Shown here piece after piece: positions 6,761 through 60,890 of a DNA stretch of 64,000 nucleotides. How positions within the stretch are numbered: the first letter of the stretch is position 1; every line of letters begins with the position of its first letter. The stretch is taken from the NCBI GenBank assembly GCA_046496425.1, contig JAWOGY010000063.1, positions 10,360 to 74,359 of the forward strand. The letters are read 5' to 3'. A model generated the notes under the pieces. The model saw only the letters and a program-made list of their open reading frames with translations, did not search any database and was not told where the DNA came from. This stretch comes from Vicinamibacterales bacterium (GTDB lineage: Bacteria; Acidobacteriota; Vicinamibacteria; Vicinamibacterales; JAKQTR01). Made by a program: the position numbers and the translations under genes.

Positions 6761-6805
6761 CTGTGCAGTTGGGGACACTCGAGGGAAGGGTGCCCGACCT
6801 ACAGT
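6761..6805 (+). promoter_or_regulatory. copy C of a three-copy ECF-type promoter-like motif (CTGTGCA..GGGAC-N16-CCCGAC-CTACAGT)
   Basis: Aligns position for position with the elements at 12328-12405 and 23496-23573. Same 16-nt spacing between the GG(A/G)AC and (T/C)CC(A/G)AC blocks, followed by the invariant CTACAGT. Points toward the CDS starting at 6832. Confidence 0.4.
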
Positions 6806-10123: not shown

Positions 10124-10753
10124 ATGACCATCCGCATCGTACTCATCGACGACCATCCGATGGTGCTCAAGGGCCTCGAGCAGTTGCTGCAGCTGAACGC
10201 GGACTTCGAGGTCGTCGCCACCTGCGGCACGGCGGTCGAGGGGCTGCAGGCCGCCGAAACGCTCCGTCCCGACGTGCTCCTGCTCGATCTCAAGCTGCCG
10301 GGGGAGGACGGGCTGAGCGTGCTGCGCAAGCTCGACTCGACGAAGCCGCCGGCGGTGGTCGTGTTGACGGCGAGCCAGGACGAAGACGACCTGATCGCCG
10401 CCGCACGCCTCGGCGCGCGCGGCATCGTGCTCAAAGCCATGGCGCCGCGCGTCCTGGAAGACTGCATCCGGACCGTGCACGCCGGCGGGCTGAGCCTCAG
10501 CGTCGGCGGGGTGGATCTGTCGGATCGCCTCGCGCACCGGCAGCAGGTCGAGATCGAGCTTCAGAACATCCTGACGCCGCGCGAGTTCGAGATCCTGCGA
10601 CTGGTCGCCGCCCGCCTGGACAACCAGGAAATTGCCGCGCGCTTGTCGATCAGCGTCGGCACCGTGAAGATCCACCTGCACCACGTCTTCGAGAAGCTGC
10701 AGCTGCGGGGGCGCCACGATCTCCAGGTGTACCTGCGCGAGAAGAAATACTGA
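10124..10753 (+). CDS. response regulator, NarL/FixJ (LuxR HTH) family
   Basis: Receiver IRIVLIDDHPMV..DVLLLDLKLPG. C-terminal LTPREFEILRLVAARLDNQEIAARLSISVGTVKIHL. Confidence 0.95.
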   Translation: MTIRIVLIDDHPMVLKGLEQLLQLNADFEVVATCGTAVEGLQAAETLRPDVLLLDLKLPGEDGLSVLRKLDSTKPPAVVVLTASQDEDDLIAAARLGARGIVLKAMAPRVLEDCIRTVHAGGLSLSVGGVDLSDRLAHRQQVEIELQNILTPREFEILRLVAARLDNQEIAARLSISVGTVKIHLHHVFEKLQLRGRHDLQVYLREKKY

Positions 10754-12194: not shown

Positions 12195-12327
12195 CCCGGC
12201 TTCCCTGCACGTACTCGTCCTCCTCTCGGACGGTTCGGGGGTGGCGCTCGGAGAGAACCGCTCCGGACAACTGGGCCGGCCCAAGGCCATCCGCAGCTTT
12301 CTCCCGGCCGAGCGCGTGCCGCCGCCC

Positions 12328-12405
12328 CAGAACGTGCGGCTGTGCAATCGGGAACACGTGAAGCGAGGTTGTCCAACCTACAGTGGAGAAGCGATGACAC
12401 GGCCA
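12328..12405 (+). promoter_or_regulatory. copy A of the conserved approx 78-nt element containing an ECF-type promoter-like motif (GGAAC 12351-12355, N16, TCCAAC 12372-12377, CTACAGT)
   Basis: About 78 nt nearly identical to 23496-23573 (about 5 mismatches). The core is also shared with 6761-6805. Located 60-140 nt upstream of the rhomboid start. Confidence 0.45.
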
Positions 12406-17636: not shown

Positions 17637-18905
17637 ATGCATACGGTTATTGGCGCGCTGGACAGCGGGGTTCTTGACGCCGCCGACCTTCGGCGCCGGC
17701 TGGGGGTATCGCCACCGACGATGATGCGAGCCGTTCGGCAGGCCGGGCCACGCGTCGTTCGCATTGGCCGGGCACGAGCCACCCGGTACGGCTTGCGCGC
17801 GTTGTGGCCAGGCTTGGACGTGTCGCGTTTCCCTGCGTTTCGAGTGTCTGACAGCGGCGGCGTTCAATCATCCGGCGAGTTGTTCACGTTGGCAGCGCGC
17901 CAGACAGTCTGGATGCCAGATGGCGCGGTGTCCGACGGACTGCCAATTGAACTCGCAGATGCCCGGCCGTCGGGCTTCCTGGGACGGCATTTCGCTGCCA
18001 CGCACGCTGACCTTCGATTGCCGGCGCGCCTGGAGGATTGGTCGGATCATCACATTCTCATCGCCCTGTCGAGGCGCGGCGAGGATGTTCCCGGCAATCT
18101 CGTCCTCGGCGACGAGTCGTTCACCCGATGGCAGGCGCTTGACACCGTGGCGCACACACGGGACGACTATCCCGGACTGGCAGAGGCGACGATCGCCGGA
18201 CATCCGCCTGGCTCATCGGCCGGCGGCGAGCGGCCGAAATTCGGCGTGTTCGTCGATGGACGGCATAGGCTCGTGAAGTTCGCCGCCCGCTCGACCGACG
18301 CCGTGGCCAGGCGATGGTGTGACTTGCTCGTCCTCGAGGCATTGGCGCTCGACGTGGTTTCCTCGCGCGGCATCCCGGCGGCCCGCACGCACGTCGTCGA
18401 GCGGCCTTCTCACTGGTTCCTCGAAAGCGAACGCTTTGATCGGGTAGGGGCGCGCGGACGTCTTGCTGTGCTGAGCTTGGCTGCCGTTCACGACGATCCC
18501 GCGCATTCCTGGGCCCAGGCGGCGGTCGAACTGAGAAGCGCGGGCCGGCTTTCTGACGAAGACGCGCGTCGACTTCGATGGCTTGATGCCTTCGGCGCCC
18601 TTATCGGGAATACCGACAGACACCAGTTCAATATTCTCGTGTTCCCCGCCGGCGCGAGTCTCCGGCTCGCGCCGGCGTTCGATCAGGTCTCGATGCTGTA
18701 CGCACCGTCGGGAGATGGCCGCGTGCCAGCCAGGGCGCTTGCCCTGCCGAGGGCGAGTTCGGACACGCTGGACGTCTGGGACGACGCTCGCGCTGCGGCA
18801 CGGGACTTCTGGGAGCGCGCCAGTGACGACGGGCGTGTGTCGGACGATCTTCGCAACGTCTGCTCGGCCAACGTTCACGCGCTTCTCACCGGCCAGGGTC
18901 GGTAG
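17637..18905 (+). CDS. HipA-family Ser/Thr kinase with fused N-terminal HTH (YjjJ/HipH-like architecture)
   Basis: N-terminus LDAADLRRRLGVSPPTMMRAVRQAG (HTH-like). Kinase core GSSAGGERPKF and DAFGALIGNTDRHQFN (HipA_C catalytic loop). No separate hipB-like gene nearby. Confidence 0.8.
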   Translation: MHTVIGALDSGVLDAADLRRRLGVSPPTMMRAVRQAGPRVVRIGRARATRYGLRALWPGLDVSRFPAFRVSDSGGVQSSGELFTLAARQTVWMPDGAVSDGLPIELADARPSGFLGRHFAATHADLRLPARLEDWSDHHILIALSRRGEDVPGNLVLGDESFTRWQALDTVAHTRDDYPGLAEATIAGHPPGSSAGGERPKFGVFVDGRHRLVKFAARSTDAVARRWCDLLVLEALALDVVSSRGIPAARTHVVERPSHWFLESERFDRVGARGRLAVLSLAAVHDDPAHSWAQAAVELRSAGRLSDEDARRLRWLDAFGALIGNTDRHQFNILVFPAGASLRLAPAFDQVSMLYAPSGDGRVPARALALPRASSDTLDVWDDARAAARDFWERASDDGRVSDDLRNVCSANVHALLTGQGR

Positions 18906-21015: not shown

Positions 21016-21561
21016 GTGACTGTCATCCTGAGCGATGCGGATGTGGTGCGCCGGATCGGCACCGGACACGATCGGGAGGCCGAGGGCGAACTCTTTCGCC
21101 GGATGGCGCCGCGCGTGCGGCTGTACGGTTTGCGTCACCTGCGGGACGGACATGCCGCGGATGACCTGACGCAACAGGTGCTGATTACGACGATCGAAGC
21201 GCTGCGGGCCGGCCGGCTGCGCGAACCGGAGAAGCTCGCCTCATTCGTGCTGGGGACGTGCCGGATGACGGTGCTCGATCTTCGCCGGGGCGCTCAACGC
21301 CGGGCGCGCCTGCTCGAGCAGTTTGGCGTGGATCTGCTCGCGCCGGCCGCGCCGGCCCTGCCCGAGCTCGACCACGAGCAGCTCACTCGCTGCCTGCAGG
21401 CACTCAAGGAGCGGGAACGATCGGTTGTCGTCATGACGTTCTACGACGAGCGGACCGGCGCGGACATCGCCGGGTTTCTCGGAGTATCTGATGCGAACGT
21501 GCGGGTGATTCGCCACCGGGCGATCCATCAGCTGCGCGCGTGCATGGAGTCTGGCACATGA
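21016..21561 (+). CDS. ECF-type sigma-70 family factor
   Basis: Region 2-like DDLTQQVLITTIEAL. Region 4 HTH TGADIAGFLGVSDANVRVIRHRAIHQLR. GTG start. Confidence 0.85.
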   Translation: MTVILSDADVVRRIGTGHDREAEGELFRRMAPRVRLYGLRHLRDGHAADDLTQQVLITTIEALRAGRLREPEKLASFVLGTCRMTVLDLRRGAQRRARLLEQFGVDLLAPAAPALPELDHEQLTRCLQALKERERSVVVMTFYDERTGADIAGFLGVSDANVRVIRHRAIHQLRACMESGT

Positions 21562-22139
21562 ACCTTTCGCATCCGATCGACACGGCCGTCCTCGCCGACT
21601 ACTGGCTGGGGGCGTTGTCAGGCCCTGACGAGGAGTCCGTCGAGGAGCATCTCCTGGCGTGCGACCAGTGCGGGGCGCGGCTCCGCGAGGTGATGGCGCT
21701 GGCCGAAGGGGTTCACCGTCTGGCGCGCGAGGGAGACCTGCGGATGGTGGTCAGCGACGCGTTCCTCCAGCGTGCGGCGGAGGACGGCTTGCGTGTTCGC
21801 GAATACGCCCCTCCACCAGGCGGCAGTGTCCACTGTACAGTGACCGAGGACGATGACCTGATAATCGGACGACTGGCTGCGAACCTGAGCGGGGCCAGCC
21901 GCGTCGATCTCTGCTGGTGCGACGAGCATGGCGTCGAACGGCTGCGACTGCCGGACATCCCGTTCCGCGCCGACGCGGCCAGCATTGTCCTGCAGGAACC
22001 GATCACGTTGATGAAGGCGTCGCCGACCGCGACGCAGATCGCGCGCGTGCTCGCGGTGGACGACGCCGGCACCGAGTGCCTGCTCGGGGAGTTCACCTTC
22101 CACCACACTCGCACGTTGCCTGGCCCGGGTGCGTGGTGA
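21558..22139 (+). CDS. anti-sigma factor (zf-HC2), apparently soluble
   Basis: ATG at 21558 overlaps the sigma stop (ATGA). EEHLLACDQCGARLREV is the zf-HC2 motif. No obvious TM segment. Confidence 0.7.
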   Translation: MNLSHPIDTAVLADYWLGALSGPDEESVEEHLLACDQCGARLREVMALAEGVHRLAREGDLRMVVSDAFLQRAAEDGLRVREYAPPPGGSVHCTVTEDDDLIIGRLAANLSGASRVDLCWCDEHGVERLRLPDIPFRADAASIVLQEPITLMKASPTATQIARVLAVDDAGTECLLGEFTFHHTRTLPGPGAW

Positions 22140-23335: not shown

Positions 23336-23433
23336 CGGAAACTGCCAAGTCTGGGCTTCGCGCGCACTGATGAACGCTGTCGGGTAGGGTTCGAATCCGG
23401 TGCGGGTGGTCTGCCTTCGCCTTGCCTTCGCAG
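23335..23433. repeat. dispersed repeat R, copy 1 (approx 99 nt)
   Basis: gcggaaactgccaagtc..gccttcgcag matches 35865-35963 with about 9 mismatches. Confidence 0.7.
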
Positions 23434-23495
23434 TGGCGAGCCCATGGTCGGTGCAAACGCGGCGCGCGCGCTGTCCCGTAGTACGCACCCACCGC

Positions 23496-23573
23496 CAGAA
23501 CCTGCGGCTGTGCAATCGGGAACACGCGAAGCGAGGCTGTCCAACCTACAGTGGAAGAGCGATGACACGGCCA
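23496..23573 (+). promoter_or_regulatory. copy B of the conserved element with an ECF-type promoter-like motif (GGAAC 23519-23523, N16, TCCAAC 23540-23545)
   Basis: Near-identical to 12328-12405. Lies 67-145 nt upstream of the BON gene start at 23640. Confidence 0.45.
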
Positions 23574-23639
23574 GTGGCCGTGTCGGCCATCCGTCTCGAC
23601 ACCGGCCGAACATCACGTCGCACCTCCAGAAAGATACAC

Positions 23640-24230
23640 ATGTCCAGTTCAATCGGTCTCTCCCGGACACTCGGACTCGCCCTCGTCGTCGCCGTAGGGT
23701 CGACAGCATTCGCGTTTGCCTCCTCGCAGGCGCCGAAGCCCCAGGCGCCGCCGGACAGCACAGTGAAGGATCGCATCGAGTACCGCCTCGAAACGAGCCC
23801 TGTCGTCGATCCGTACGACCTCAAGGTCAAAGTCGACGCCTCCTCCGTCTGGCTGACGGGCACCGTTGCGACCGCCGCCCAGAAGACGGAAGCCGGGCGG
23901 CTCGCGAAGGTCGACGGTGTCAGCAAGGTGGAGAACAACATCGATGTCGACAAAGATGTCGATCGGTCCCTGGCAGAACGGACCAAAGCCGGCATGACGA
24001 AGACCGGTGAGGTGATTACCGACGGGTGGATCACCACGAAGGTTCATTGGTTTTTCGTCGGCGAAGATCTGCTCAAGGGCAGCGACATCAACGTCAACAC
24101 GGACAATAACGTGGTGACGCTCAAGGGCACCGTCACGTCGGGTGCCGGCCGCGATCGGGCCGAGGCTATCGCCAAGCGGACCGCCGGCGTCCAGCGCGTC
24201 GTAAACCAGTTGACCATCATCGCGAACTAG
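23640..24230 (+). CDS. BON-domain protein (two BON repeats), secreted
   Basis: ORF 23400..24230 trimmed to the ATG at 23640. Signal-like LGLALVVAVGSTAFAFA. Repeats SSVWLTGTVATAAQKTEAGRLAKVDGVSKVENNIDV and NNVVTLKGTVTSGAGRDRAEAIAKRTAGVQRVVNQLTI. Confidence 0.85.
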   Translation: MSSSIGLSRTLGLALVVAVGSTAFAFASSQAPKPQAPPDSTVKDRIEYRLETSPVVDPYDLKVKVDASSVWLTGTVATAAQKTEAGRLAKVDGVSKVENNIDVDKDVDRSLAERTKAGMTKTGEVITDGWITTKVHWFFVGEDLLKGSDINVNTDNNVVTLKGTVTSGAGRDRAEAIAKRTAGVQRVVNQLTIIAN

Positions 24231-24242
24231 CAGCGCACGCAC

Positions 24243-24267
24243 GTGGCGGGCGTTACACGCCCGCCAC
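24243..24267 (+). terminator. GC-rich hairpin after the BON gene
   Basis: GTGGCGGGCG-TTACA-CGCCCGCCAC, a perfect 10-bp stem. No clear T-tract follows. Confidence 0.4.
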
Positions 24268-24332
24268 GCTCTCAGGAGGATCTCGAACTCAACCGCGGCA
24301 AGAATGCTTCGCGGGAGCGGAAGGGCGCAGTC
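24258..24332 (+). pseudogene. ghost of a rhomboid gene: leader fused directly to the last approx 28 nt of the coding sequence
   Basis: 24258-24304 matches the rhomboid leader 12405-12451 (cgcccgcc..ctcaaccgcggcaagaa). 24305-24332 matches the rhomboid 3' end 13079-13106 (tgcttcgcgggagcggaagggcgcagtcg). The intervening approx 630 nt of CDS are absent. Confidence 0.7.
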
Positions 24333-24429: not shown

Positions 24430-25671
24430 CTAGTCGTGCACGACGATGGTCAGGAGAGAATGCTTAATCTTGAGGACGCCGTTGTATTCGATGAACCCGA
24501 GCTTCTTGAACTTGTTCATGAAGAAGTTCACGCGCGAGCGCGTCGTGCCGATCATCTCCGCGAGTGTCTCCTGGGAGATTTTGGGAACGATCGTCTCGGG
24601 CGTGCTTTCTGCTCCAAAGTGCGCAAGCAAGAGCAGCGTCCGCGCCAGTCGCTTCTCGCTGGAGCTAAACAGCTGGTCGACGAGTTCCGCTTCATATCGA
24701 ATGTTCCGCCCCAACAAATATGCCGTAAACAGGTCCGACAGGCGCTGTTCGTCGTGGAGCGTGACCAGCATCGCCTTTTTCTCGATCCGCATGAGCTCGC
24801 AATCAGTCATGGCGATTGCACTCCCTAAGCGTCGCGCCTGTCCCGTCAGGCACCCTTCTCCGCAGAACGTACCCGGCCCCAAGACTCCGAGCGTCGCACT
24901 CTTGCCGCCCTTCGAGACGACGGTGAGCCTGACATTGCCCTTCTGGACATAAAACACCGCGTCTGCCGCCTCGCCCTGCGCGTAAATGTACTGTTTCTGT
25001 GAAATCCGTACAATTGTTCGGCCCTCACCGATGACGGCAAGGAACTTCTTCGGGTCGAACTCCTGTTGCTTGCCGGCTGCACGGCGTACCACGCTTCGTA
25101 GCGCGTCCGGCATGGCTCCAGGCGGCAGCACGAAATCAATACCTCCGGACGCCTGAGCACTGAGCGGCATGCCGTCGACTTCGGCCGAGAAGTCCTGAGC
25201 AAAGGTCGCTCCTCCGTTTGCCTGGATATGCTGGCAGCCCTTCGTACCATCGTCGCCGTACCCAGAGAAGATGATGCCGATCGCGCGCGCCCCCCAAGCT
25301 TCTGCCAGAGACATGAACAAGAGATCGACCGGATGGTTCGCATTCGTGCGCCGGGAGGCGGCTGTGAAGGCATAGCCCTTAACTTGAAGGGCCGCGTTTG
25401 GAGGCATCACATAAACGTGATTCGCCTGGATCGGCATCCCCTTGGCCGCCTGCCTGACCGGCATTTTCGTGCGACGCGAGAGGACCTCCGCGAGCAGGCT
25501 GTCCGCGACAGGCTGAATCTGAGACGCGATGATAAACGCCATTCCCGTGTCAGACGGAAGGGCATCCACGAGCGCTTTATAGGCGCTGAGAGCTCCCGCT
25601 GATCCACCCACGCCGACGATGAACTGAGGATGCGGTTGACTCATGAGACGATCTGAAACTCTCCAAGCCAC
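24430..25671 (-). CDS. fusion protein: CheB-like methylesterase-fold domain (no receiver domain) plus cNMP-binding domain plus Crp-type HTH
   Basis: N-terminus FIVGVGGSAGALSAY..AFIIASQIQPVADSLL..IIFSGYGDDGTKG aligns with the CheB catalytic domain blocks. C-terminus FCGEGCL (cNMP pocket) and ETLAEMIGTTRSRVNFFMNKFKKLGFI (Crp HTH). The start is uncertain (GTG 25671 or ATG 25644). Lies 20 nt downstream of the kaiC-like stop. Confidence 0.85.
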   Translation of the reverse strand: MAWRVSDRLMSQPHPQFIVGVGGSAGALSAYKALVDALPSDTGMAFIIASQIQPVADSLLAEVLSRRTKMPVRQAAKGMPIQANHVYVMPPNAALQVKGYAFTAASRRTNANHPVDLLFMSLAEAWGARAIGIIFSGYGDDGTKGCQHIQANGGATFAQDFSAEVDGMPLSAQASGGIDFVLPPGAMPDALRSVVRRAAGKQQEFDPKKFLAVIGEGRTIVRISQKQYIYAQGEAADAVFYVQKGNVRLTVVSKGGKSATLGVLGPGTFCGEGCLTGQARRLGSAIAMTDCELMRIEKKAMLVTLHDEQRLSDLFTAYLLGRNIRYEAELVDQLFSSSEKRLARTLLLLAHFGAESTPETIVPKISQETLAEMIGTTRSRVNFFMNKFKKLGFIEYNGVLKIKHSLLTIVVHD

Positions 25672-25690
25672 ATCAAGTCAGCGAACCTGT

Positions 25691-27205
25691 TTATCCCTGA
25701 CTCACGGTAGCGGCTTTACCCACTTTCATTTTCTGCTTGGCACTCGCTGTCGCGTCCGTGTCCATGGGCACCAAGTGAATGCCGTCATCATTCAGGATCA
25801 ATTTGTGGACGTCGCTCGAGTGCCCCATGCCGCGAGACTTGACAATGTACAGGCCCCGAACGCGCCGCTTGCCCTCGTTTTCTTCCAGTTCTCGCACGAC
25901 GATCCACGTGTCGATGAGGGACGAGACGCCGATTTCGCCGCTCGTATCATTTTGAGCGGTTGAAGACACCAGACTCGTGAAGAAGCCGGTGATGCCCTTG
26001 GATTTCAGGAGATCAATCATGCGGGTCAGCATGGATTGCAACTCCAGCTGGTTCCCTTGTCCGATGAGACTGGTCAGCGGATCGATGACCACCGCATGGG
26101 GTTTGAATTCGGCGATGGTCTTGTAGACCTCGAGCAAATGCATCTCTAAACCGAAAAAGGACGGTCTCGTCGACACGATCTTCAAGAGTCGCTTCTTGAT
26201 CAGGGGCTCAAAGTGTATGCCGATGGAACTCATGTTTTGCACGAGTTGCCCTGACGATTCTTCGTACGACAAGAACAGGCACCGCTCTCCACGTTTACAG
26301 CGTTCGATCGCGAAGGCAGCCGCGAGGCTTGTTTTTCCCGTGCCCGCCGTCCCTGAGACCAGTACCGTACTGCCTCGTGTGTAGCCGGCCCCCTTGAACA
26401 TCGTATCGAGCGACGGAATTCCTGTCGACACTCGCTTGGCGGTGCCTGGCTGGTCGAGTCCTGCAGAGGTGATCGGAATGACCGAGAGCCCCTCCTTGTC
26501 GATGACGAAGGGATATTCGTTGGTGCCGTGCTTTGAACCACGATACTTAATTACCCGAATGCGGCGCGTGGCGATCTGTTCTCTGACGCGGTTGTCCAGG
26601 AGGATGATGCAATCGGAAATGTACTCCTCCAGGCCATGACGAGTATACGAGCCATCGCCCAGCTCGCCGGTGATGATGGCGGTGACGTGTTTGTCCTTCA
26701 GCCATCGGAAGAGTCGCTTGATCTCTAAACGAAGAATGCCGGCATCCGTAATACCCGCAAAGAGCGATTCAATCGAGTCGAGAACCACGCGCTTGGCGCC
26801 AATCGAATCGATCGCATGTTCCAAGCGAATGAAGAGCCCTTCCAGGTTGAAATCGCCTTTCTCTTGAATATCTTTGCGTTCCAGACGCACATGCTCAAGG
26901 GCAATCTGCTTGCGCGACACCAGCCCTTGTAAGTCCAGATTGAGAGACGCGACGTCTTTATACAGCTCATCTTCTGTCTCTTCGAAAGACATGAAGATGC
27001 CTCGCTCGTTGTAATGGATCGCGCCGTTGATCAGGAAATCAAGGCCCAGCAGGGTTTTGCCGGTGCCGGTGCTGCCGCTAAACAGACTGATTCTATTCTT
27101 CGGAAGGCCGCCTTCGGTGATTTCGTCAAAGCCTTTGATGCCGGTGGGGCACTTCTCTAATGGCCGGCGATTAGGACTCTTTCGTCTCTTCAGAGTATTG
27201 GGCAT
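25691..27205 (-). CDS. kaiC: KaiC-like double RecA-fold ATPase
   Basis: Two Walker A motifs GSTGTGKT and GTAGTGKT. TGIKGFDEITEGGLP and TGIPSLDTMFKGAGY loops. Walker B blocks VVLDSIESL and VVIDPLTSL. IGVSSLIDTWIVV aligns with the KaiC phosphosite segment. Start trimmed to the ATG at 27205. Confidence 0.9.
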   Translation of the reverse strand: MPNTLKRRKSPNRRPLEKCPTGIKGFDEITEGGLPKNRISLFSGSTGTGKTLLGLDFLINGAIHYNERGIFMSFEETEDELYKDVASLNLDLQGLVSRKQIALEHVRLERKDIQEKGDFNLEGLFIRLEHAIDSIGAKRVVLDSIESLFAGITDAGILRLEIKRLFRWLKDKHVTAIITGELGDGSYTRHGLEEYISDCIILLDNRVREQIATRRIRVIKYRGSKHGTNEYPFVIDKEGLSVIPITSAGLDQPGTAKRVSTGIPSLDTMFKGAGYTRGSTVLVSGTAGTGKTSLAAAFAIERCKRGERCLFLSYEESSGQLVQNMSSIGIHFEPLIKKRLLKIVSTRPSFFGLEMHLLEVYKTIAEFKPHAVVIDPLTSLIGQGNQLELQSMLTRMIDLLKSKGITGFFTSLVSSTAQNDTSGEIGVSSLIDTWIVVRELEENEGKRRVRGLYIVKSRGMGHSSDVHKLILNDDGIHLVPMDTDATASAKQKMKVGKAATVSQG

Positions 27206-27529
27206 ACAAGATCCTTCGCTCGGTGTGGTGCGCGAGCCTCCGAATCGGATTTCGCGCACTGCGACACGTGAACGATAGACGTGTGAGACAGAACGACCCA
27301 AGAACGGCAGACGGAAGGCTCAGCTCCGTCCATCGGCGTGCCAACTTGACAGCGCGAGGATACTCGCACCCATACAGGGTCGACTGTCTCATAATGCACA
27401 CTTCGGATTGAGGGCGCCGGAGCGACCAGCGGCCGCCGGCCTAAGCGGCTCGTTAGGCTGGCATTGCTTACTTGGGCCGGCTCTAAAGAAGCTTCGCTTA
27501 CCTACGTGGTGACCTGATGCGTTCTTCGG

Positions 27530-31423: not shown

Positions 31424-32084
31424 TCAATTGCCGCTCTTCGAGAGGCCCGAGTCGGCCAGCGCCAACAGTCTCCGCAGGAGCGCCGGACGTCGGGATTGGC
31501 TGGCCGAATCTGGCAGCAGGAAGCCGGAGAGGGCATCGACGAATGCCCGAACGCCGAGCAGGTGGCGCAGTTCAGAAGCAACATACTCCCTGACGTCGGC
31601 CGACGACGCGGCTAGTTCGCGAGCGATCTCCTCACGTCCATCGATCACGGTGACGATATCTTCGAGGTCGTGGCTGTCAGTGATGTCGTTCTGGCCGCGG
31701 CCACGGAAGGCCTCAAGCTTCGTCGCGAGGAAATAGACCGGCGTGATGACACGCAGGCGAAGATCGGCGAGATCCACGTGTTGGGCCGATGAGATGGCGG
31801 GCCGATACCAGCGGTTGCTGAAGCCGAGGACCCGATCGTCGGTGGGCATCACATCGATGATTAGATGCTGGTGGCGCCACCGGCACATTGGCGCGCCCTG
31901 GCTCGCGTCTTCTCTCAGCCCCAATCCGCGCAGTCGCGACGTCCTTCGTGGGGCGGACACCGGCGGCGGCCGGATCCGAAATCATCAGCCCCGTCGTGCA
32001 CCCACCCAAGAACACGAGTTCACCGAGGAGTGGCCGCAACACACGTGCCGCAGCGGCGAGCATCTCCAGATTGGGGTCATCCAT
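31424..32084 (-). pseudogene. frameshifted nucleotidyltransferase-fold gene
   Basis: The N-terminal 48 aa (ORF 31713..32084: LVFLGGCTTGLMISDPAAAGVRPTKDV) continue in another frame (ORF 31424..31960: ..IIDVMPTDDRVLGFSNRWY..PVYFLATKLEAFRGRGQNDITDSHDLEDIVTVIDGR). One frameshift lies near 31940. Confidence 0.6.
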
Positions 32085-32613
32085 GGAGTTGCTGGCGCAG
32101 TCGCGCGGTCAATTCCTGACCGGCGAGGCGTCGCTCCCGGGCGCGACCGTCCCGAAGAGCGTCGATCAATGCCAGCAGTTCGTACAACAGCGGATCTCGC
32201 AGTGCGGCGATCGGGACGGTCCTGTACAACGGCTCAAGTCCGATGCCGCGCTGTTTGCCCTCGGCGTACGGCCAAACCGGCGGCAATTCGGTGCCGGAGG
32301 CGATCTTCCCGGCCAGAGGCGGCGCCGCGTAGGAAGTGGCCAAGCCACGGGTCGGCTGACCGCGCTTCGCCGGAAAGGCGTACTTCACGCCGTGGAGCAG
32401 GAATTCTTCGACTGCTTGGAGTAGAGGACGACCATCGTCTGCCTCGTCGGACACCAAGCGCGAGATCGCCAGGCGCTTCAGGGCGCCATGGACCTCGGAC
32501 GTGCTGAGGGACAAGTCCAGACCCATTCGAGCCATGGGTGGGCGCGGCCCACGGTAGCTGATGAGCTTGGCCAGTACGAACACGTCTTGGGGCCGAAGGC
32601 TGGGCTGAGTCAT
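32077..32613 (-). CDS. winged-helix DNA-binding protein, partner of the frameshifted NTase gene
   Basis: 178 aa. LSLSTSEVHGALKRLAISRLV is wHTH-like. Its stop overlaps the NTase start by 8 nt. Confidence 0.5.
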   Translation of the reverse strand: MTQPSLRPQDVFVLAKLISYRGPRPPMARMGLDLSLSTSEVHGALKRLAISRLVSDEADDGRPLLQAVEEFLLHGVKYAFPAKRGQPTRGLATSYAAPPLAGKIASGTELPPVWPYAEGKQRGIGLEPLYRTVPIAALRDPLLYELLALIDALRDGRARERRLAGQELTARLRQQLHG

Positions 32614-36190: not shown

Positions 36191-36264
36191 TGGCTGGGAG
36201 GCAGGGATTCGAACCCCGATAACGTGGTTCAGAGCCACGTGTCCTACCGTTGAACGACCTCCCA
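36191..36264 (-). tRNA. tRNA-Gln (anticodon CTG), CCA encoded
   Basis: The reverse complement folds by hand. Acceptor UGGGAGG/CCUCCCA, D stem GUUC/GGAC, anticodon stem CGUGG/CCACG with loop CUCUGAA, T arm CGGGG-UUCGAAU-CCCUG, discriminator G, CCA. Confidence 0.9.
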
Positions 36265-38957: not shown

Positions 38958-39051
38958 TGGCGGTGAGGCAGGGATTCGAACCCTGGATACAGGTTTTAGC
39001 CCGTATAACGGTTTAGCAAACCGCCGCCTTCAGCCTCTCGGCCACCTCACC
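38958..39051 (-). tRNA. tRNA-Ser (anticodon GCT), long variable arm, CCA encoded
   Basis: Hand fold: acceptor GGUGAGG/CCUCACC, anticodon stem GCGGU/ACCGU with loop UUGCUAA, variable arm about 20 nt, T arm CAGGG-UUCGAAU-CCCUG, discriminator G. Confidence 0.85.
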
Positions 39052-60800: not shown

Positions 60801-60890
60801 TGGCGGAGGGAGAGGGATTCGAACCCCCGGTACGGTTTCCCGTACAGCGATTTTCAAGACCGCCGCCTTCAACCGCTCGGCCATCCCTCC
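60801..60890 (-). tRNA. tRNA-Ser (anticodon TGA), long variable arm, CCA encoded
   Basis: Hand fold: acceptor GGAGGGA/UCCCUCC, anticodon stem GCGGU/AUCGC with loop CUUGAAA, variable arm UGUACGG-GAAA-CCGUAC, T loop UUCGAAU, discriminator G. Confidence 0.85.

Follow-up and report, generated by a model that had tools for sequence, protein, structure and literature searches.

The genome of a soil acidobacterium carries a kaiC gene followed, on the same strand, by a gene encoding a CheB-like domain fused to a cyclic nucleotide monophosphate (cNMP)-binding fold and a Crp-type helix-turn-helix (HTH), and this pairing of kaiC with a CheB-like partner recurs in dozens of unrelated metagenome contigs. 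The two genes lie in a stretch of 64,000 nt (hereafter the window; positions 10,360 to 74,359 of contig JAWOGY010000063.1, assembly GCA_046496425.1) from a member of the Vicinamibacterales. The KaiC/CheB-like pair is a real variant of KaiC signalling, previously undescribed within the literature searched. We read it as a signalling cassette which works without KaiA and KaiB and in which a CheB-fold partner, presumably through physical contact, would couple the state of KaiC to a Crp-type output; judging from comparative sequence data, we give this reading a probability of roughly 0.55. KaiC homologues are common outside cyanobacteria, and their signalling partners are largely unknown beyond operons with KaiB and histidine kinases. 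Literature searches outside subscription journals returned no description of the pairing, and a comparative survey of Kai components (PMC5520375) mentions neither CheB, Crp nor Acidobacteria. This agrees with an earlier prediction made from the DNA letters of the window (the original prediction), in which the domain combination and its association with KaiC were taken for an undescribed system.

In order to assess the linkage, we ran an alignment restricted to the CheB-like domain against metagenome contigs and mapped kaiC by tblastn, because a scan of GTDB genomes with the full-length fusion alignment had been swamped by stand-alone Crp paralogues of Terriglobia; among the matches listed from that scan, only a Nitrospirales metagenome-assembled genome (L001) carries the fusion. 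Upstream sequence of 150 nt or more was available for 79 loci. In 75 of them the gene directly upstream on the same strand is kaiC, complete or as its 3′ end (32/32 Crp fusions and 43/47 stand-alone CheB-like genes), and all other neighbours differed between loci. The pairing is therefore far beyond chance, with loci that are partly related to each other. The fusion architecture itself is common in metagenomes, with more than 120 clusters of full-length homologues that have the same three domains and 66–89% identity. The co-occurrence with kaiC or its 3′ end, which had been proposed as a check, was found for all of the Crp fusions counted. Three distant fusion members located on long contigs are likewise preceded, at 6–60 nt and on the same strand, by a kaiC of 501–509 aa (3/3). 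No third conserved gene was detected in the stand-alone loci, where the other clusters corresponded to antisense open reading frames (ORFs) or to near-duplicate contigs. Furthermore, pairwise distances between KaiC proteins correlate with those between CheB-like domains (r = 0.70, Mantel p about 0.001), which indicates that kaiC and the CheB-like gene travel together. Taken as comparative evidence, these data support the view that kaiC and the fusion gene form a functional unit.

The window comes from a Vicinamibacterales host, whose glutamyl-tRNA synthetase (GluRS) shows 85% identity to the one in a Vicinamibacterales metagenome-assembled genome. Other carriers include the Nitrospirales genome mentioned above and Candidatus Angelobacter, and a histidine kinase form of the partner is present in contigs labelled Nitrospiraceae and Fuerstia. 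The Nitrospirales locus (L001, 6001–10204) has one kaiC among three CheB-like genes, with a Crp fusion upstream of kaiC, a 199-aa stand-alone copy at most 24 nt downstream and, encoded on the other strand, a divergent copy of 233 aa.

The CheB-like domain is joined to different output modules or to none. In about half of the loci retrieved it forms a stand-alone protein of approximately 190 aa (186–221 aa). The domain was also searched against 1.8 billion representative proteins, and further forms of the same subfamily include CheB-like-HisKA-HATPase_c proteins (572–577 aa), a 465-aa protein with a pseudo-receiver-like C-terminus and a distant Crp fusion of 436 aa. Two of the histidine kinase fusions (P0275 and P0270) are encoded 18–116 nt downstream of a 509-aa kaiC, and the 465-aa protein (P0128) only 4 nt downstream of kaiC. 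A kaiC-linked domain whose C-terminal module can be swapped (none, a transcription factor or a kinase) is the pattern expected of a domain which binds or reads KaiC, and such a role is supported for the CheB-like domain by these architectures. In the KaiC tree the deepest clades have stand-alone partners only, and fusions are mixed with stand-alone types among the shallower clades; accordingly, the stand-alone form looks ancestral, as far as the tree can tell. One further layout (L167, 2042–6556) consists, in order, of kaiC, the gene for a 465-aa CheB-like/pseudo-receiver-like protein, a receiver-like gene and a weakly KaiB-like gene, which suggests that some cassettes combine the CheB-like partner with KaiB-type components.

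Profile searches of the window fusion protein identified CheB_methylest (E 4e-48, over the full-length profile), cNMP_binding (E 1e-18) and HTH_Crp_2 (E 5e-11), and neither Pfam nor NCBIfam scans found a receiver domain (Response_reg), exactly the receiver-less arrangement that had been predicted. An AlphaFold2 monomer model (mean predicted local distance difference test score, pLDDT, 73.9) confirmed these folds, with a helix at residues 300–325 and the HTH, and a Foldseek search with the model returned MtbCRP, GlxR, CAP and NtcA as top matches, with a probability of 1.00 for the first three. Because all fusion homologues begin with the motif M-x-x-x-HP-x-F, we placed the start of the gene at the ATG at 25644. 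Its distance from the kaiC stop codon is 46 nt, and not the 20 nt first reported; a gap of 19 nt is obtained only by counting to the first in-frame GTG, at 25671. No terminator-like site was found within the 46-nt spacer.

The KaiC protein matches Pfam KaiC (PF06745) twice (E 6e-109), as expected for tandem RecA-like KaiC domains. Both halves have intact Walker A (GSTGTGKT, aa 44–51, and GTAGTGKT, aa 285–292) and Walker B motifs (VVLD143 and VVID375), as originally predicted, and the catalytic EE pairs are present in CI (75/76) as well as in CII (315/316). The protein scores 634 bits against NCBIfam NF006799 (cut-off 408) and 306.7 bits against TIGR02655, the cyanobacterial circadian equivalog of the KaiABC oscillator, which is below the cut-off of 546. 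The closest solved structures are those of the KaiA-independent KaiC of Rhodobacter sphaeroides (KaiC_RS; 8db3 and 8dba; E 1e-155, 58–60% identity). A VSS segment had been noted in the region of the cyanobacterial phosphosites, and the alignment bears this out: the two serines of GVSSLID (S428/S429) are aligned with those of GLSSLMD in KaiC_RS, whose phosphosites are S413/S414 and which has EE at the same position in the S413E/S414E phosphomimetic structure 8fwi (PMC10076222). The pair occupies the CII position of S431/T432, is a Ser-Ser pair like that of KaiC2 proteins, and belongs to a segment, GVSSLIDTW, which is unchanged across 47 partner KaiCs. With its catalytic and Ser-Ser phosphosite motifs all preserved, KaiC would be expected to form a hexamer that autophosphorylates and hydrolyses ATP. 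In the KaiC2 subgroup, a C-terminal coiled-coil extension of about 50 aa has been linked to the KaiA-independent autophosphorylation of KaiC_RS (PMC10076222). The tail of the window KaiC is short and basic, with about 22 residues past the last conserved strand, and its alignment with KaiC_RS stops at residue 482.

When the CheB-like domain was aligned to the CheB structures 6ymz and 1chd and its codons were checked, Ser15, Gln42 and Asp132 were found at the positions of CheB S164, H190 and D286. The Ser-His-Asp triad is intact in 45 of 49 stand-alone partners and 12 of 14 histidine kinase fusions and in 16 of 38 Crp fusions. Crp fusions without the catalytic His have Gln in 17 cases and Pro, Asn, Asp or Arg in the rest, and one distant Crp fusion reads A-Q-D at the triad positions. 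The window protein is thus very probably not a hydrolase. As the catalytic His is Gln here and is absent from about half of the Crp fusions, a non-catalytic binding role of the domain in the window protein is likely, and the Crp-fusion lineage seems to use the domain for binding.

Alternatively, the CheB-like protein could be an enzyme which sets or resets the activity of KaiC by covalent modification, through Gln deamidation or glutamyl methyl ester hydrolysis, the window copy with its His-to-Gln change being a degenerate or regulatory derivative. This would fit the retention of the triad in the stand-alone and kinase forms, as well as the fact that the domain is a bona fide member of PF01339 whose nearest relatives outside its own subfamily are the CheB domains of large CheB-CheR-PAS proteins (42–48% identity). 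The KaiC tails of partner loci also have a semi-conserved Q-K-x-K-[VI]-G-K motif with Glu in place of the Gln in two loci, but that Gln is found in only about 70% of the sequences and the loci share no conserved CheR-like methyltransferase. Moreover, the triad has been lost repeatedly in Crp fusions which still keep kaiC, the window protein included, indicating that catalysis is dispensable at least for this variant. We regard an enzymatic role as unlikely.

The ligand pocket of the Crp half is atypical. Its phosphate-binding cassette reads R-[L/M]-G across the family, compared with R-[S/T] in cAMP binders; the equivalents of CRP E72 and R82 are kept as Glu and Arg, that of S83 is Leu (Leu or Met across the family) and, in a manual alignment, those of T127/S128 are Tyr/Glu. 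With Leu/Met for Ser/Thr and Tyr/Glu at T127/S128, a cyclic-nucleotide effector of the fusion protein cannot be assumed from the sequence.

Upstream of kaiC, at the outer edge of the cassette, we identified a candidate operator, GTGTGCATTATGAGACAG, a palindrome of the type TGT-N10-ACA. Of 19 dereplicated Crp-fusion loci, 7 have the strict pattern, between −163 and −202, and so does the Nitrospirales locus, where the fusion gene is upstream of kaiC; none of 25 stand-alone-type loci (L129 and L130 included) has it. By our own arithmetic, chance would give about 0.03 matches per locus. A position weight matrix (PWM) built from the strict sites located held-out sites in five loci (L082, L125, L087, L089 and L100), and among the stand-alone loci it scored well only in L129 and L130, both of which have a Crp-type gene upstream of kaiC. 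Strong matches are confined to loci encoding a Crp domain. The same class of palindrome is enriched upstream of 91 stand-alone Terriglobia Crp paralogues (34% with at least 12 bits, versus 10% of controls). The presence of a Crp-type palindrome upstream of kaiC, with strong matches only where a Crp domain is encoded, makes DNA binding a plausible output of the fusion protein, and the position of the palindrome suggests that the protein may regulate its own cassette. Additional operator copies in the window, with best PWM scores at 12340, 23508 and 6761, were rejected, as they are a repeated element resembling promoters of extracytoplasmic function (ECF) sigma factors and not Crp-type palindromes.

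These findings bear on the original proposal of an input-to-transcription module. Comparative genomics supports the two-gene unit, the KaiC-linked CheB domain and a plausible DNA output, gating by a cyclic nucleotide is not supported, given the atypical cassette, and the CheB-like domain would presumably read the KaiC state by physical contact. They also raise the possibility that the fusion is a plain regulator of the kaiC operon, in which the CheB-like domain senses a small molecule or another protein and KaiC is the output and not the input. The palindrome upstream of kaiC would be accounted for in this way, and so would the situation in Terriglobia genomes (L002–L080), which encode many stand-alone Crp paralogues, often several per locus, that are 60–76% identical to the C-terminal half of the fusion and have similar upstream palindromes; in one case (L030, 6022–8303) such a paralogue lies directly upstream of a kaiC homologue with 54% identity. 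Nevertheless, stand-alone CheB-like proteins, which have no DNA-binding domain, and CheB-like histidine kinase fusions are equally tightly linked to kaiC, which a plain operon regulator leaves unexplained, and we find this alternative doubtful.

The leader of kaiC has further conserved features. The last 15 nt or so before the kaiC ATG (AAGGATTATTGTATG) are conserved at the nucleotide level across L081–L170, even between high-GC and low-GC cassettes, and a GC hairpin, GGGCCCGGGCCGGGCC, often comes before them. The corresponding region of the window (27206–27260) contains GAAGGATCTTGTATG, preceded by the palindrome TCCGATTCGGA. The conserved end of the leader may be a translational control element. 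At the gathering threshold, Rfam detected only three tRNAs in the whole window and matched no RNA family within the leader of kaiC, and scans for sigma-70 and terminator consensus sequences gave no excess over the shuffle expectation.

Our preferred reading, a self-contained KaiC signalling cassette with a CheB-fold partner and a Crp-type output, would work as follows. The CheB-fold domain, which in the window lacks the catalytic His and is fused to a Crp-type dimeric regulator, would be a dedicated KaiC partner that docks on KaiC depending on the nucleotide or phosphorylation state of the latter. Docking would alter the ability of the Crp half to bind the TGT-N10-ACA operator, which, lying upstream of kaiC, would result in autoregulation, and other genomic targets are possible. 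In functional terms, the fusion protein would then unite in a single polypeptide what SasA and RpaA do as an output arm. If KaiBC systems are taken as a guide, the cassette is likely a metabolic or stress timer of the hourglass type.

Several observations weigh against this reading. Many of the loci are mutually related, and the counts are not fully independent. Four fusion loci retain only the last 45–50 codons of kaiC, and kaiC is missing from the position directly upstream of four stand-alone CheB-like genes, which implies that the partner can persist without kaiC. The strong retention of Ser-His-Asp in the stand-alone and histidine kinase forms suggests that catalysis matters there, for which a pure adaptor model has no explanation. 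About half of the Crp-fusion loci are without a good operator match; seven of the matched sites served to train the PWM, which is therefore partly circular, and PWM matches elsewhere in the window are the ECF-promoter-like repeats. Finally, the contact between KaiC and the CheB-like domain is one that we infer, and the AlphaFold2 monomer, of moderate confidence (pLDDT 73.9), says nothing about coupling. In a wider reading, which we hold only tentatively, KaiC may have gained a new class of partner by recruitment of the CheB fold, in a signalling system independent of KaiA and KaiB (its contigs being assigned to Acidobacteriota, Nitrospirota and other groups). The CheB-like domain would read the state of KaiC, perhaps chemically reset it in the catalytically intact forms, and hand it on to an exchangeable output, which may be absent, a Crp-type regulator or a histidine kinase; the system would travel in the form of a small cassette that regulates itself.

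The cassette, whose features are listed in Table 1, stands out from its surroundings. Its GC content is 56.5%, versus 65.5% and 66.1% in the flanks, and the GC content at third codon positions is 0.68–0.72 in its genes, compared with >0.75–0.9 in neighbouring genes. By blastn, it is 86.8% identical to a metagenome contig (L081) over exactly the 2.97 kb bounded by the outer palindrome edge and the stop codon of the fusion, and the flanking genes are unrelated. The cassette is thus, on sequence evidence, portable and horizontally mobile, and no convincing flanking or terminal repeats were found at its borders. A hairpin outside the cassette, between the fusion gene and a convergent BON-domain gene, is likely a terminator shared by the two.

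The neighbouring genes are accessory and encode a metallo-beta-lactamase-fold protein, DinB, an ECF sigma/anti-sigma pair, a BON protein, nucleotidyltransferase-like pairs, an XRE regulator, a GyrI-like protein, a HipA_C protein and a PDC-M21 pair. As originally predicted, no kaiB, kaiA or histidine kinase gene adjoins the cassette: the best tblastn hit to KaiB in the window had E 0.33 (queries were the KaiB-like protein of L167 and an approximate Synechococcus elongatus KaiB sequence), no KaiA or KaiB Pfam match was found among the scanned neighbours, and neither a histidine kinase nor che genes (CheA/W/R or methyl-accepting chemotaxis proteins) were found among those scanned within about 8 kb. 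The toxin-antitoxin and Fic surroundings described at first were recovered in part, as accessory genes of the HipA_C, nucleotidyltransferase-like and PDC-M21 types; no Fic domain was found among the ORFs scanned. The two overlapping genes that adjoin the cassette on its upstream side are arranged like a toxin-antitoxin system with a nucleotidyltransferase-like toxin.

Given this setting, the pair could itself be an anti-phage defence or toxin-antitoxin-like accessory system that uses a KaiC-family NTPase, as had been suggested, and the location of a mobile cassette in a region with HipA_C, nucleotidyltransferase-like and PDC-M21 candidate genes would fit such a role. However, the fusion protein has no match in PADLOC 2.0 and KaiC has only short, P-loop-level matches (mad8, 39 bits over 60 aa), other contigs have housekeeping or unrelated genes around the pair, the cassette encodes no effector-like domain, and KaiC is 58–60% identical to a biochemically characterised timer KaiC and has all clock motifs. 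A defence role is accordingly not supported, and we consider it highly improbable.

Table 1 Features of the kaiC cassette and its surroundings in the window.
Feature	Position (nt)	Strand	Basis and remarks
Cassette of 2.97 kb (operator, leader, kaiC, fusion gene)	24434–27402		GC dip; DNA homology to L081
kaiC, double-domain KaiC ATPase/autokinase homologue	25691–27205	minus	504 aa; Pfam and NCBIfam matches; start as in the called gene in a public collection
Codons of S428/S429, putative autophosphorylation sites	25919–25924	minus	Alignment with S413/S414 of KaiC_RS
kaiC-fusion intergenic spacer	25645–25690	minus	46 nt; GGAGAG upstream of ATG
CheB-like/cNMP-fold/Crp-HTH fusion gene	24430–25644	minus	404 aa from conserved ATG; alternative GTG 25671; Pfam and homologues
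Receiver-less CheB-like domain	25099–25617	minus	Ser15-Gln42-Asp132; alignment to 6ymz and 1chd
cNMP-binding-fold beta-barrel with atypical phosphate-binding cassette (FCGEGC...RRLGSA)	24766–25011	minus	Pfam; GlxR alignment; Foldseek
Crp-type winged HTH	24478–24654	minus	Pfam HTH_Crp_2, E 5e-11
Candidate operator, TGT-N10-ACA palindrome	27384–27401	minus	196 nt upstream of kaiC ATG; cassette outer edge; CRP-site spacing
Perfect hairpin, 12-bp stem	24242–24268		Between convergent BON gene and fusion gene; outside cassette
Overlapping gene pair, 193 aa and 89 aa	27717–28564	minus	Immediately upstream of cassette; no Pfam, NCBIfam or PADLOC match
HipA_C-domain protein, putative HipA-like toxin kinase	17637–18905	plus	E 4e-20
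PDC-M21 candidate defence pair	31424–31960, 32077–32613	minus	PADLOC B: E 3.5e-46, A: E 7e-45; no Pfam or NCBIfam match
tRNA-Gln(ctg), tRNA-Ser(gct), tRNA-Ser(tga)	36191–36264, 38958–39051, 60801–60890	minus	Rfam

The tRNA-Gln gene borders the accessory region which holds the cassette and might mark the boundary of a genomic island. Elsewhere in the window, an element of about 75 nt is repeated almost exactly at approximately 12322–12400 and 23490–23570, with a partial copy near 6761 (...GGCTGTGCAATCGGGAACACG.GAAGCGAGG.TGTCCAACCTACAGTGGA...). It resembles a promoter of the ECF type (GGAAC-N17-TCCAA); the BON-domain gene (23400–24230) has one copy upstream of it, and the ECF sigma/anti-sigma pair is encoded at 21016–22139.

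A conserved and portable KaiC/CheB-like pair with three output architectures offers a concrete, testable output pathway for non-photosynthetic soil bacteria, and a candidate role outside chemotaxis for the widespread receiver-less CheB-like domains. As a compact two-gene system, it would convert an ATPase state into transcription, and its reconstitution in vitro or in Escherichia coli should be possible.

The output pathway of cyanobacterial KaiC consists of SasA, in which a KaiB-like domain is followed by a histidine kinase, and RpaA. The logic of the KaiC/CheB-like systems is alike, with a KaiC-linked domain fused to an output module, and the CheB-like-HisKA-HATPase protein encoded next to kaiC has the domain order of SasA, of which it is, by analogy, a direct counterpart. 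SasA reads KaiC with a thioredoxin-like KaiB fold and signals through a two-component phosphorelay, whereas the window protein has a CheB alpha/beta fold, which would bind KaiC, and a one-component Crp-type output. With the CheB methylesterase/deamidase (PF01339; 1CHD, 1A2O and 6YMZ) the window domain has in common the fold of the catalytic domain and the Ser and Asp of the triad. In contrast to chemotaxis CheB, which has a receiver, His190 and a che gene context, it lacks a receiver, has Gln for His190 and is linked to kaiC instead of CheR or methyl-accepting chemotaxis proteins. The large CheB-CheR-PAS(-histidine kinase) proteins of soil bacteria are of 1000–1900 aa and include CheR and PAS domains, as judged from a domain scan of P0124 only. 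The Crp half is similar to Crp-Fnr regulators such as CRP, GlxR and NtcA in its beta-barrel, long C-helix and winged HTH, and the candidate palindrome has the CRP-like TGT-N10-ACA spacing; the window fusion differs from these regulators by its additional N-terminal CheB-like domain of 190 aa and by the Leu/Met which replaces the cAMP-contacting Ser/Thr after the Arg. The R. sphaeroides KaiBC hourglass (KaiC2; 8DBA, 8DB3 and 8FWI; PMC10076222) resembles the window system in its Ser-Ser pair, intact CI and CII catalytic motifs and absence of KaiA. However, KaiC_RS has 568 aa with a C-terminal coiled-coil extension of at least about 50 aa, while the window KaiC has 504 aa and no such extension, and where R. 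sphaeroides has an adjacent kaiB encoding a thioredoxin-like fold, the window has no kaiB and the partner encoded next to kaiC is of the CheB fold.

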